The position numbers were made by a program. From positions 21,823 to 85,822 of the forward strand of contig DATJZP010000052.1 in the NCBI GenBank assembly GCA_035498875.1: a stretch of DNA of 64,000 nt. Direction: 5' to 3'. Position 1 is the stretch's first letter. Every line of letters begins with the position of its first letter. Source of the DNA: Myxococcota bacterium (GTDB taxonomy: Bacteria > Myxococcota_A > UBA9160 > SZUA-336). Of the stretch, positions 57,101 to 63,100 are shown piece after piece.

Positions 57101-60100
57101 CATGCTGCGCGGCGCGGAAGCGCTGCGGCCGGCGGGCGCGGGTCACTCGTTCAGCGAGCTGGTGCCGAGCGACGGATCGCTGCTCTTCCTGGATGCGCTG
57201 GCGGGCGTGGTCTCGTCCGATGCCCACGCGCTCGAGGCCGAGGTCTGGACGGGCACGCGGCTGTGGCAGCTCGGGCCCGCGCTCGCGGCCGTGGGACAGG
57301 CGCAGCCGAACCTGCCCGACATCGACTACCAGACGCTGGGCGGCGCGCTCGCGACCTCGACCCACGGCACCGGCGCGCGCTTCGGTTCGCTCTCGTCGTG
57401 CGTCACGGGGCTCGTGCTCGCCACCCCCGGCGGCGAGCTCCTGGAGTGCGACGCGCAGCGCAATGCCGAGATCTTCCACGCCGCGCGCGCCTCGCTCGGC
57501 GCGCTCGGCGTCGTGACTCGCGTGCGGCTCGCCAATCAAGCGCCCTTCCGGCTGGTCGAACGCTCGCGCTTCGTCGAGCTTGAGTCACTGCTGGCCGAGC
57601 TCGCGCGCGAGCGCGATGCGCACCGGCACTTCGAGTTCTACGCCTTCCCGCACTCCGAGGTCGCGCTCGCGATCGCGACCGACCTTGGTGAGTCGCGCGA
57701 GCCGCCGCCGCCCGACGACCCCGAGGCCGTGCTCTTGCTGCGCTCGGCGTTCTCCTGGCTGCGGCTCCTGCCGGGTGGCCTGCGCCTGTACGACGCCTTC
57801 CTGCGCCGCCAGCCCGAGAGCGTGCGCGGCGGAGACTCGTACGCGGTGCTGTGTCACCCGCGCAGCGTGCGCTTCAACGAAATGGAGTACACGGTGCCCG
57901 CCGAGGCCGGGCCCGAGTGTCTGCGCGCGGTGCTGTCGGAGATCCGCGCGCGCGACCTGCCCGTCTGCTTTCCGATCGAGTGCCGGCACGTGCGCGCCGA
58001 CGACGTCTGGCTCAGCATGTTCCACGAGCGCGCCGGCTTCTCGATCTCGATCCACCAGTTCGCCGACCAGGATTTCCGGCCGTATTTCGCCGCGATCGAG
58101 CCCATCTTCTGGAAGTTCGAGGGCCGGCCGCACTGGGGGAAGCACCACTCGCTCGGCGCCGCGCGGCTCGCGGCGCTCTACCCCCGGTTCGCGGATTTCC
58201 AGGCGCTGCGCCGTTCACTGGATCCGAAGGCACGGCTCGCGAACGCACATCTGGCGCAGATTTTCGGGATCTAGGGGTTAGACTGCGCGCTCCGGAAGAC
58301 ACTTCCGGAACACGAGAGGGGTGATTCATGCGCGTGCTCCGCATCCTGCTGATCGTGATCGCGGTCCTGGCGGTCGTCGCGTTCGGCGCCGGCCGCTATC
58401 TCCTGGGCCGCGAGGCGGTCCCCGAGAAGAGTGACTACACGCTCGACCTGACCGAGATCCGGCGCCTGGCCACGAGCCTGCCGGGCGAGCTGCCGCAGCG
58501 CGTGAACGACGAGCAGGTGACGCAGGCCAGCCTGCCCAAGGGAGCGGTGTTCGCCGGCGCGTCTCTCTCCGAGATGCACCCGATGAGTCACGGCGCCTAC
58601 CAGGTGGTGTACGGCGACGGCAGCTACACGCTGATCGACTCCGCGTTCGACGAGCAGCTGGCGAAGGCGATGGCGCGCGGTGCCGCGCCGTCGCCCTTCG
58701 ACAACGCGGCATTCGACACGATCCAGAAGGCGCTGGCCGGCGCCCAGCACATCGTGCTCACGCACGAGCACCCCGACCACATCGGTGGGGTGGCCGCGTT
58801 CCCCGACCCCCAGGCGCTGATCGGCCGGCTGATCCTGAGCCGCGAGCAGCTCGAGAACACCGCGATGATGGACGCGGTGAAGATGCCCGAGGCGATCCGG
58901 AAGAACGTGTCTCCGCTGGTCTACGACAAGTACTACGCGGTCGCCCCCGGGATCGTGCTGGTGCGGGCCCCGGGTCACACGCCGGGCAGTCAGATGGTCT
59001 ACGTGAAGCTCGCCGACGGGAAGGAGCTGCTGTTCCTGGGCGACGTGGCCTGGCACATGGACCAGCTGCGCCAGCTCTGGTACCGGCCGCGGCTCGTGAC
59101 CGACTTCTTCATCCACGAGAACCGGGCCGAGGTGCTGGCCGAGTTCCGCACGCTGCACGACCTGATGGAGCGCGAGCCGGAGCTGCAGTTCGTGGTGTCA
59201 CACGACGTGGATCAACGCGCCGAGCTGCTCAAGTCCGGCGTGCTCGGGGCGCACTTCCAGCTCTGAGTCCCGCGACCACGAGCTCGACCGCGGCGCGCAG
59301 GAGCTCCTGCGCGTCGCTGCGCCAGACGCGGTGCGGCCCGACGAACAGCTCGCGAGTCAGCGTGAAGTGCAGGAGCCACAACACCTCGGCGGTGTGCGCC
59401 ACGTCGAGATCGCGGCGCAGCTCGCCGCGGCGCACGCCGCGCGCCAGGACCGGCTCGAGACCCTTGCGGTACTCGCGCGCGAACGCGATCTGACTCTCGA
59501 GCCCGCCGGGGATCAGCGCGCCGGGGTCCTGCGCGATGATCCGACGCAACAGCGGGTTGTCGCGCACGTAGCCGAGCGACACCTGCAGGAGCTCCCCGAT
59601 CGCCTCGGCGGTCGAGCCCTCGGGATACTTCGAGCTCTTCACCGCCTCGGTCCAGGCCGCGACCAGGCGCTCCCAGATCACGCCGAGCAGCGCCTCCTTC
59701 GAGGGATAGTGGTCATAGACCAGACCCTTCGAGACACCGGCGCGCGCGGCGATCTCGTCGACGGTGGTCCTGGCGAAGCCGTGAGTCGCGAACAGCTCCT
59801 CGGCCGCGCCCAGGATGCGCGCCAGCCGGCGCTGTCGGGCCAGAGCGCGCTCGCCCGTGGCCTCGCTGCGCGGCCGTCTCACCTTCCGCCGCTCGCGAGC
59901 GCAACGAAGCCGTCGATCGCCTTGCGCCGGCCGGCGGGCTGGTAGCTGTACAAGAGCGCACGCCGGTCCTCGTCGGTCCCGTTGGGCAGCGAGCGGTGGA
60001 CCAGGAGTGACCCGAAGAAGACGGCGCTGCCCGCGGGCACCTCGAGCGCGACCAGGTGAGACTCGTCGAAGGCCTCGGGATCCATCTCGAGGCTGCCGAA

Positions 60101-63100
60101 GCCCTCGACCCGCCGCTGCGCGCGCACGCCGCCGGTGTGACTGCCCGGCGCGACCTCGAGACAACCGTTCTGGCGCGTGGCGTCGTCGAGGAACACGATC
60201 GCGGTCGCGATCTCGCCCGCGCCGTCGGAGTTCTCGGTCCAGTAGGGGTAGTCCTGGTGCAGCACGATCGGGCCACCGCTGCGGCCGCGCTTCACGTTCA
60301 GCTTCTCGGTGAAGAGCTCGATCGCTTCGGCGCCGACCACGTCCTTCATGGGCTCGATGAAGCGCGGATCGTGCGCCCAGTCACGCAGCGCCGCGTCGAA
60401 GTGAGCGAAGGGCTCGATGCCCTGCACCACGTCGGGAAACGCGGGCTCCCACTTCACCATCGTGACCAGGTCCTTCTCGAGCTGGAACATGTAGCTGCCG
60501 ACGGCGAACTTGCGGCGGCCGAGGCTGCGCTCGATGACTCGCGCGACCATCGCTTCGCAGTCGGCGCGCAGCCGCGCCAGCTCGGCTTCGCCGAACGCGC
60601 GCTCGCGCACCACGTAGCCCAGGGTCTTCAGCTGGTCGCGCTCGCGCGCGTCGAGACGGGCGGCTGGGTTCATGCGTCTCAACTTGACTGAATTTGAGGT
60701 TTCAGTCAATTTGGCGTCGATGAGTTACCCGAGCGCAGGCCAGGCCGAGATCGAGCGCTTCTGGCGCGACGGCTATCTGGTGGTGCGCGATGCGATCGAG
60801 CCGCGCGACCTCGACCGGCTGCAGGCGATCTGCGACGACCTGCTCGCGAACCGCGAGAGGGTCGCCTTCGATTGGGCCTGGGAGGCGGGCACCGATCGCG
60901 AGCACCGCGCCTTCAAGATCGTGCAGACCAGCCCGAGTCTCTTCCACAAGGCCGAGCTCGCGGCGCAGCGCTTCCGAATCTGGTCCACGGAGTTCGCCTC
61001 GACGCTGTTCGGCCAGCCGGTGGAGTTCTGGTATGACCAGTTCCTGGCGAAGCCGCCGCGCGAGGGCGCGCGCACGCCGTGGCACCAGGACGAGGGCTAC
61101 TGGGGCCGCAACCTGGACGAGCGGGGAATCACCTGCTGGCTGCCCTTCCACGACGTCGGCGTGGAGAACGGCTGCATGCACTTCGTTCCGGGCGCTCACA
61201 AGAAGGGCATCCTCGTGCACCGCCCCGCCGACAACGTGCAGAGCGACTTACTCGTGTGCGAGGTCGACGAGAGCCAGGTCGTGCCCGAGCCGGTGAAGCT
61301 CGGCGACGTGACCTTTCACCACGGCAAGATGCCGCACATGACCACGCCGAACGCGTCGCCGCGCTGGCGGCGCGCGCTGTCTCAGCACTTCCGCGTGGTC
61401 GGCTCGAAGGGTGAGGGCGATCACTACCCGTGGAAGATCTACGTGAATCAGATCACGGGTCAGCGGATCAAGCCGCCCGTTCGGTAAGTCGCGCGGATTT
61501 CGTTTAGGCTCTCGGGCCCGGAGGTCCCCTGTGCCCGAGCCTCGTCGACCGAAGCCCGTTCCGACGCCGGAGACGAAACACTACTGGGAAGGCGCGCGCG
61601 CCGGCGAGCTGCGCCTGCAGCGCTGCCGGTCGTGCAAGAAAGCCTATTTCCCGCCGCGGCCCTTCTGCCCCTTCTGCGCGAGCGGCGACACCGTCGTATT
61701 TCGCGCCAGCGGCCGCGCCACGCTCTACAGCTACGTGATCCACCACCGGCCGATGCCCGGCTTCGAGCCGCCGTACGCGATCGCCGTGGTGACCCTCGAG
61801 GAGGGGCCGCGCATGATGACGAACCTGGTGGGCGTGGCGCAGACGCCCGAGGCGCTCGAGCTCGACATGCCGCTCGAAGTCAGGTTCCAGAAGCTCGACG
61901 ACGAGATCTCGCTGCCCGTATTCCAGCCGGCCGAGGCCGCGCGATGAGCGTGCGCGGCAAGGTCGCGGTCGTGGGCGCCGCCGAGACCCGCGAGCTCGGC
62001 GTGATCCCGAACGTGTCTCAGATCGAGCTCCACGCCGACGCCGCACGCAACGCGCTCCACGACTGCGGGCTCTCGTTCAAGGACATCGACGGCGTGGCCA
62101 CCGCCGGCGAGTCACCGGTGGCGATCGCCCAGTATCTCGGGATCGTCCCCAACTGGGTCGACGGCACTCAGGTGGGCGGCTGCTCGTTCATGATCCACGT
62201 GCGCCACGCGGCGGCTGCGATCGCCGCGGGTCACTGCAAGACCGTGCTGATCACGCACGGCCAGAGCGGCCGTTCGCGCGTGGGCGTGGGCGGCCGACCC
62301 GGGGGTCCGGCCTCGCTCGGCGGCCAGTTCGAGGCGCCCTACGGGATCGCCGGGCCGCCGACGATCTTCACGATCCCGGCGCTGCGCTACATGAAGGAGT
62401 TCGGACTCACTCATGAGGAGCTGGCGATGGTGGCGGTGATCCAGCGCGAGTGGGCCGGCCGCAACCCGCGCGCGATGCACCGCGACCCGATCGGCGTGGA
62501 GGACGTGCTCGGCTCGCGCCTGATCGCGTACCCGTTCCACCTGCTCGAGTGCTGTCTCGTCACCGACGGTGGCGGCGCGCTGGTGCTCACCGCCGCGGAG
62601 CGCGCGCGCGACTTCCCGCAGAAGCCCGTCTACGTGCTCGGCACCGGTGAGAGCAGCGAGACACCCATGCTCTCCCAGATGGAGGACTTCACGACCTCGC
62701 GAGCGTTTCGGGTCTCAGGCCGGCAGGCCTTCGCCGAAGCGCGCATCGCCCCGGCCGACGTGGACCACCTGATGATCTACGACGCCTTCGCGCACCTCCC
62801 CATCTATGGTCTCGAGGATCTCGGCTTCGTGAAGCGCGGCGAGGCGGGCCGCTTCATCTGGGAGCGGAACACCGCCCCCGGCGGGAAGCTGCCGCTCAAC
62901 ACCAACGGTGGCGGCCTGTCCTATACGCATACCGGCATGTACGGCATGTTCGCGCTGCAGGAGAGCGTGCGGCAGGTGCGGGGCACGGCGCCCGCGCAGG
63001 TGCCCGGGGTTCGGATCTCGGTCGCGCACGGCGTGGGCGGCATGTTCGCGGCGGCGGGCACGGTGATCCTGGCGGACGCGCCGGGCGTTTAGTCAGTCCT

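Follow-up and report, generated by a model that had tools for sequence, protein, structure and literature searches.

A conserved palindrome between divergent PhyH-family oxygenase genes in Myxococcota, predicted operator of an adjacent TetR-family repressor

The window analysed here, a stretch of 64,000 nucleotides from the Myxococcota bacterium assembly GCA_035498875.1 (contig DATJZP010000052.1, positions 21,823 to 85,822), carries two divergently transcribed genes for PhyH-family oxygenases, PhyH1 and PhyH2, that are separated by a 46-bp gap in which a perfect inverted repeat is found at 60684-60709. This 26-bp palindrome (34 bp with its flanks) most likely is the operator of the TetR-family repressor encoded directly behind PhyH1, and from the comparisons presented below we estimate a probability of about 75% that the regulator represses both divergent units from this site. 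Regulators of the TetR family typically act on neighbouring or divergent genes, which they repress from palindromic operators overlapping the promoter. PhyH1 (59879-60673, minus strand, 264 amino acids) is the first gene of a PhyH1-TetR operon, and the TetR gene (59229-59882, minus strand, 217 amino acids) is the second; at the GTGA junction between them the GTG start of TetR (59882-59880) overlaps the TGA stop of PhyH1 (59881-59879), and such a stop-start overlap or a direct abutment is kept in the orthologues. PhyH2 (60720-61487, plus strand, 255 amino acids) reads in the other direction. Gene families were assigned by Pfam search of the window proteins, and boundaries were checked by independent gene calls on the source contig (ENA ERZ27256511 k141_5067958), which returned the same boundaries. 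The first-pass annotation of this DNA was thereby borne out on the gene families (TetR, two PhyH oxygenases, and a DUF35/SCP-x thiolase pair) and, on direct reading of the junction, on the GTGA-coupled TetR gene immediately downstream of one oxygenase.

The palindrome itself, TTGACTGAATTTGAGGTTTCAGTCAA, consists of perfect 9-bp arms around an 8-bp spacer (TTGACTGAA-N8-TTCAGTCAA), exactly as first read between the two divergent genes, and the layout of the gap, from one start codon to the other, is CAT-GCGTCTCAAC-TTGACTGAA-TTTGAGGT-TTCAGTCAA-TTTGGCGTCG-ATG. A repeat search extends it to an imperfect palindrome at 60680-60713, with 13-nt arms (60680-60692 and 60701-60713) that are 92% complementary, differ by one mismatch, and bring in the flanks CAAnTTGAC...GTCAAnTTG. 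The gap (60674-60719) has 46% G+C and is the only AT-rich stretch of the area, the window as a whole having about 71% G+C. No further copy with up to three mismatches was found in the window, and none of 100 shuffles matched; when the 46-nt gap alone is shuffled, a perfect inverted repeat of at least 9 bp arises in 0.075% of cases. About 19 further perfect inverted repeats of this minimum length occur in the window, all of them GC-rich (arms with at most 44% A+T); the palindrome of the gap is the sole AT-rich one (67% A+T). Since GC-rich repeats of this length are expected at the composition of the window, the repeat alone is weak evidence; it is the position, the AT-richness, and above all the conservation that argue for a real palindrome.

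Conservation was assessed in 80 genome loci, 80 metagenome loci collected via TetR alignment, and 12 contigs obtained by exact protein look-up, and a total of 174 loci (1.40 Mb) was scanned for a relaxed form of the motif. PhyH1 homologues are abundant. The metagenome TetR scan contributed, among the matches listed, at least five true orthologues (L085 to L089), with one new usable upstream region (L088); L086 repeats L025, L085 and L087 start only within PhyH1, and the contig of L089 lacks a PhyH gene. Fourteen distinct loci of the Myxococcota type carry TetR (the window, L002, L005, L006, L007, L025, L088, L165, L166, L168, L169, L171, L173, and L174): PhyH1 is 73-89% identical, TetR is the next gene in each, and the palindrome is intact in all 14. 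The first-pass annotation had tied the operator to conservation in orthologous regions, and the arms are indeed kept throughout: mean pairwise identity amounts to 94.5% over the 9+9 positions of the arms versus 51% over the 8-bp spacer. Upstream of PhyH1 all 14 loci share the consensus cAAATTGACTGAA-N7-aTCAGTCAAGTT, followed after 6-7 nt by the start codon, and the distance from the end of the site to the PhyH1 ATG is fixed at 9-10 nt. The arms are bordered by conserved flanks (cAAA and GTT); in most relatives the perfect core is 8+8, the 9+9 of the window being the best case, and single one-sided deviations in L025, L173, and L174 bring the arm consensus to TTGACYGRA. With its flank the consensus is defined as cAAATTGACYGRA-N8-TYCRGTCAAGTT. 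Conservation is poor in the PhyH2 leader that adjoins the palindrome, which argues that the arms are under selection of their own rather than preserved by recent common ancestry. All 22 matches to the relaxed motif share a single location, immediately upstream of a PhyH1 homologue; outside it, no operator copy was found in the 1.40 Mb of loci and no wider regulon is visible there.

From the arrangement of bases in the gap a mode of action can be proposed. Each arm begins with TTGACT, a five-out-of-six match to the -35 consensus, and 17 bp past each TTGACT, next to the other arm, lies a -10-like hexamer, CAAGTT towards PhyH1 and CAATTT towards PhyH2. The putative PhyH2 promoter (60684-60712, plus strand) would thus have its -35 element at 60684-60689 and its -10-like element at 60707-60712, and the putative PhyH1 promoter (60681-60709, minus strand) would have them at 60709-60704 and 60686-60681, each with a 17-bp spacer and with 7 nt left before the ATG. 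On the PhyH1 side, the succession of a -35-like hexamer, 17 bp, CAAnnT, 6-7 nt, and ATG, with no Shine-Dalgarno sequence, recurs in the 14 loci and in the more distant L009. On the PhyH2 side a leader of 20-50 nt containing GGAGG is present in the relatives and has been lost from the window; by this loss the two ATGs of the window have become equidistant from the dyad centre, each exactly 23.5 bp away, and both lack a Shine-Dalgarno sequence in front of them. A distance of 6-7 nt between -10-like hexamer and start codon is canonical for transcripts beginning with the A of the ATG, so that both window transcripts probably are leaderless or nearly so. Our search of the literature on Myxococcus transcription starts and leaderless mRNAs yielded nothing usable. 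The palindrome would then overlie two overlapping divergent core promoters, each arm providing the TTGACT -35 element of one direction and abutting the weak -10-like hexamer of the other. Spread over 60680-60713, a TetR protein would mask the -35 hexamers of both directions and border on their -10 regions, and could in this way shut off PhyH1-TetR (autoregulation) and PhyH2-DUF35-thiolase together, until released by a small-molecule ligand, presumably the substrate or an intermediate of the pathway.

Promoter geometry might also account for the symmetry without any repressor, back-to-back TTGAC -35 and CAAnnT -10 elements being enough to generate it, and the near-consensus -35 hexamer that opens each arm speaks for this possibility. 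The four loci without TetR bear directly on it. One of them (L003), a lone PhyH1 fused to the upstream gene, has no motif; the other three (L004, L084, and L167), whose PhyH1 orthologues are 78-82% identical, have a decayed palindrome in which TTGAC and (G/A)TCAAG(G/C)T are kept at an unchanged distance from the ATG, while the inner TGAA/TTCA symmetry is lost to GC-rich, asymmetric bases and the frame has grown by 1 bp. The bases retained in the absence of TetR match the -35 and -10 positions, and those that decay are the palindrome-specific ones. The resulting arrangement, TTGAC-N17/18-CAAGnT-N6/7-ATG, is consistent with a constitutive leaderless promoter, and the persistence of TTGAC and TCAAGnT without TetR indicates that something other than TetR constrains the outer bases. 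Promoter function does not, however, explain why conservation of the inner positions 6-9 (TGAA/TTCA) and of the exact 26-bp frame is confined to loci with TetR, nor why L084 and L167, which have no divergent gene, keep both outer elements, nor why L009 alters both arms symmetrically; we therefore regard a palindrome made by promoter elements alone as improbable.

In a more distant relative, L009/L082 (PhyH1 60% and TetR 63% identical), the genes are co-directional, in the order PhyH1-TetR-PhyH2-PhyH3, and PhyH1 is preceded by the perfect 10-bp palindrome TTGACCGGAT-N6-ATCCGGTCAA, which is placed 9 nt before an ATG. It has the same TTGAC-N16-GTCAA core in the same 26-bp frame as the window, with T-to-C and A-to-G changes that are mirrored in both arms; L008 (TetR 59% identical) has an imperfect palindrome in the same frame. 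A variant of the site thus follows TetR into a different gene order, which is difficult to reconcile with the suggestion that the palindrome serves another protein, encoded elsewhere, while the adjacent TetR binds or regulates something else. The unusually wide spacing of the half-sites for a single TetR dimer would suit that suggestion, but all 14 loci with TetR have an intact site versus none of the four without it (three decayed, one absent), and a second candidate operator is found neither close to TetR in any of the loci nor at another place in the window. Its half-site TTGAC(C/T), moreover, resembles that of the TetR-family protein RutR (PMC2475637). A different binding protein is accordingly given little credence. 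The inverted repeat is very improbable as an RNA or DNA hairpin (a structure in the 5' untranslated region, a processing site, or a terminator): the 46-nt gap does fold at -15.7 kcal/mol (z = -4.0), but any palindrome would give a comparable z-score, no T-run or terminator call accompanies it, a search of Rfam at E up to 1 gave nothing, L025, L173, and L174 tolerate one-sided changes that are not compensated, and the repeat is probably untranscribed because the starts would lie 9-10 nt from the arms and the -35-like hexamers lie inside them.

Several observations weigh against a TetR operator laid over two promoters. The -10-like hexamers match TATAAT at two of six positions only (A2 and T6), and a scan of 59100-61700 for consensus sigma-70-like promoters made no call at threshold; the earlier claim that the palindrome spans the -35/-10 space of both promoters thus agrees with the geometry and goes no further than that. 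The comparison with TetR-less loci amounts to two to three independent lineages, L084 and L167 sharing their gene context. The recognition helix of TetR is identical in the window and L009, yet the operators differ at two positions per arm, which means that specificity at those positions is loose or set elsewhere in the protein. Finally, with 17-20 bp between their centres the arms stand wide for a single TetR dimer, so that two dimers or an unusual binding mode would be needed, and no conserved inner half-sites are present in the spacer of the 14 loci. By analogy with QacR, whose 28-bp IR1 is bound by two dimers, the likeliest mode would be two TetR dimers per site.

The regulator is a clear member of its family, with a TetR_N match over residues 23-66 (7.5e-19, 67.7 bits, cut-off 24) and an N-terminus that is conserved among the orthologues; its C-terminal part, where an all-helical domain for ligand binding and dimerisation would be expected, scores 22.3 bits with TetR_C_11, below the cut-off of 32. 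It aligns over nearly its full length to solved TetR-family proteins (residues 19-202 with 6srn, 22-211 with 3vpr). RutR ranks with its better matches by sequence (3loc, 1.1e-10; TIGR03613, 2.5e-12), and the two have the outer half-site TTGAC(C/T) in common, found in E. coli RutR within the 16-bp box TTGACCAnnTGGTCAA (PMC2475637). The arms of the window site are, however, 10 bp (one helical turn) further apart, TTGAC-N16-GTCAA versus TTGAC-N6-GTCAA, and it stands among unrelated genes, rut and car genes being absent. The protein is not RutR itself, given this spacing and scores far under the cut-offs (TIGR03613, 47.1 versus 368 bits; PRK15008, 46.1 versus 230), nor is it ScbR or a gamma-butyrolactone receptor (NF041196, 70.4 bits versus a cut-off of 150).

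The closest parallels in arrangement are the classical TetR/tetO (tetR-tetA) and QacR/IR1 (qacR-qacA) systems, in which a TetR_N helix-turn-helix regulator likewise sits beside its targets and a palindromic operator occupies a short divergent gap over both promoters; autoregulation and release by a ligand are presumed for the window system as well, and its long operator (26-34 bp) recalls QacR IR1. It differs from them in that the regulator gene does not diverge from its target, being the second gene of an operon and translationally coupled to PhyH1, and in that the targets would be oxygenases and thiolase-type genes instead of an efflux pump.

Both oxygenases belong to the Fe(II)/2-oxoglutarate dioxygenases of the PhyH family (PF05721: PhyH1 6.7e-30, 105.4 bits; PhyH2 4.7e-33, 115.7 bits; cut-off 22), although they are distant paralogues of each other (28% identity over 141 amino acids). 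Each has the HxD...H iron triad and, 11 residues past the distal His, the Arg that binds 2-oxoglutarate: H139-x-D141, H226, and R237, invariant in 38 homologues, in PhyH1, and H122-x-D124, H206, and R217 in PhyH2, whose start M-S/P-Y-P is conserved in orthologues. With triad and Arg intact and the aspartate present, both plausibly are active hydroxylases and not of the HxA/G halogenase type. The AlphaFold2 model of PhyH1 (pLDDT 93.9) has as its best solved fold the free-proline hydroxylase H11 (TM 0.72), and the leucine hydroxylase GriE also is near (about 25% identity and TM of about 0.72 for H11 and GriE in the fold search). By sequence, the best solved relative of PhyH2 is the sugar-modifying EvdO2 (5.5e-23), with SnoK also close. 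The likeness to H11, GriE, EctD, EvdO2, and SnoK/SnoN lies in the fold (TM of about 0.7), the triad, and the 2-oxoglutarate Arg, whereas identity to any characterised enzyme is 18-26%. A phytanoyl-CoA 2-hydroxylase in the strict sense, acting on 3-methyl-branched acyl-CoA, is not supported by similarity for either protein: human PHYH (2a1x) matches at 1.1e-6 (PhyH1) and 1.8e-7 (PhyH2), with 18% identity in the fold search, and the enzymes that modify amino acids and sugars are closer. The term 'phytanoyl-CoA dioxygenase' is therefore a family label only, and none of the proteins of the module reaches an NCBIfam equivalog cut-off.

Behind PhyH2 follow, on the plus strand, a gene for a DUF35-type protein (61531-61947; zinc ribbon and OB fold, zf-ChsH2 and OB_ChsH2_C) and one for an SCP-x or thiolase-like protein of 382 amino acids (61944-63092; Thiolase_C_1, 2.5e-57), with the stop of the former overlapping the start of the latter at 61944-61947. 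The DUF35 gene starts 43 bp past PhyH2, the promoter and terminator scan gave no terminator-like site between them, and the two probably are co-transcribed. The pair follows PhyH2 in every TetR-positive relative with a contig that is long enough; it accompanies PhyH genes in the Myxococcota lineage only, not in other phyla. A zinc-ribbon/OB and Thiolase_C_1 gene pair with overlapping stop and start is shared with the benzoylsuccinyl-CoA thiolase BbsAB, the archaeal thiolase-DUF35 complexes, and ChsH2-Ltp2 of steroid side-chain cleavage, but the window pair falls far under the equivalog cut-offs for BbsA (35 versus 250 bits) and BbsB (124 versus 750 bits); the thiolase-like protein comes just below that of NCBIfam PRK06158 (414.6 bits, cut-off 421). 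Nothing points specifically to acyl-CoA or steroid chemistry or shows a CoA-ester substrate like that of human PHYH, and the earlier hint of steroid side-chain or branched-chain catabolism has no footing beyond family names. The proposal that TetR, operator, and two PhyH oxygenases form one regulated module is supported by the comparative evidence. The module is not quite self-contained: DUF35 and thiolase genes follow PhyH2 and, in most relatives, a further gene follows TetR.

That further gene is an open reading frame of about 550 amino acids, which overlaps the TetR stop in most relatives (L002, L166, and L168 to L174), is missing in the window and in L165, and has a weak similarity to DUF4185 (31-37 bits, under the cut-off of 39.5). 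In the window TetR is extended a little at the C-terminus, and the 3' end of its gene shares 38 nt (59229-59266) with a convergent gene for a metallo-beta-lactamase-fold protein (58328-59266, plus strand; Pfam and source-contig gene call). The region 56598-59266, encoding this protein, with a weak sub-threshold similarity to acyl-homoserine lactone lactonases, and an oxidase of the FAD_binding_4/ALO type, lies in synteny with the TetR/PhyH module in most TetR-positive relatives whose contigs are long enough to include it. No operator copy lies near either gene. In L004, L084, and L167, which lack TetR, PhyH1 has other surroundings: a convergent gene is found downstream (a cytochrome P450 in L167, unannotated in L004); L084 has a P450 fragment further downstream, and an alpha-2-macroglobulin-like gene lies near PhyH1 in L084 and L167.

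Another perfect inverted repeat of the window, TGACTGCAC-GCCCTCC-GTGCAGTCA at 17332-17356, lies in a 42-nt gap between co-directional minus-strand open reading frames (17375..18175 and 15779..17332). On the coding strand its loop is the Shine-Dalgarno-like GGAGGGC and its 3' arm runs into the ATG, so that it looks like a hairpin that could mask a ribosome-binding site. It was rejected as a related operator, the resemblance (TGACTG/CAGTCA) probably being due to chance in a repeat that encloses the Shine-Dalgarno-like loop and the ATG of another gene.

Pairs of PhyH1 and PhyH2 are also found outside Myxococcota, at 50-65% identity, in Binatia, Caulobacterales, Rhizomicrobium, Gammaproteobacteria, and metagenome-assembled genomes of Acidimicrobiia, often with one or two extra PhyH paralogues. 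These pairs have no TetR orthologue and show different conserved intergenic motifs. In the alphaproteobacterial pairs (L018, L020, L024, L040, L044, L057 to L061, L068, and L069) the intergenic regions are longer (110-170 bp) and carry CTAACATGTTAG, GTCAAGCGCTTGA, and TAGCATGTCAAT, which suggests a different regulator for the same oxygenase pair. With the pair present across lineages and TetR in Myxococcota only, the pair appears as an old, mobile functional unit, and TetR with its operator as a Myxococcota-specific layer of control over it. Recurrent neighbours outside Myxococcota (L020 to L081) are a TonB-dependent receptor, an MFS_2 glycoside-type transporter, DUF2961, a beta-lactamase-fold protein, an aldehyde dehydrogenase, and an amidase, with up to four PhyH paralogues per locus; this composition suggests an uptake-and-catabolism cluster for some compound. 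Clustering of the neighbours over 80 loci gave no universal partner beyond the PhyH paralogues, and from it no substrate can be inferred.

Two broader readings, which we hold to be rather unlikely, go further. In the first, the 46-bp gap would be a mirror-symmetric bidirectional promoter for two leaderless mRNAs, closed by one operator; in the second, PhyH1 and PhyH2 would be the conserved core of an uncharacterised catabolic pathway under lineage-specific regulators. If the second were true, each of the lineages (Myxococcota, Binatia, Alpha- and Gammaproteobacteria, and Acidimicrobiia) would have wired the pair to a different regulator, and the glycoside-related neighbours of some lineages (DUF2961/GH172-type, MFS_2, and the weakly DUF4185-like open reading frame) would hint at a modified sugar or glycoside as substrate, not a lipid. 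The TetR/operator arrangement itself is of the standard, textbook kind of TetR-family switch and changes no current view. What it offers is a clean, testable candidate regulator-operator pair for an uncultured Myxococcota lineage, with a consensus and with natural controls in the form of decayed operators; such a pair may be used to find the inducer, and may thereby help to identify what this PhyH pair, widespread in soil bacteria, acts on.

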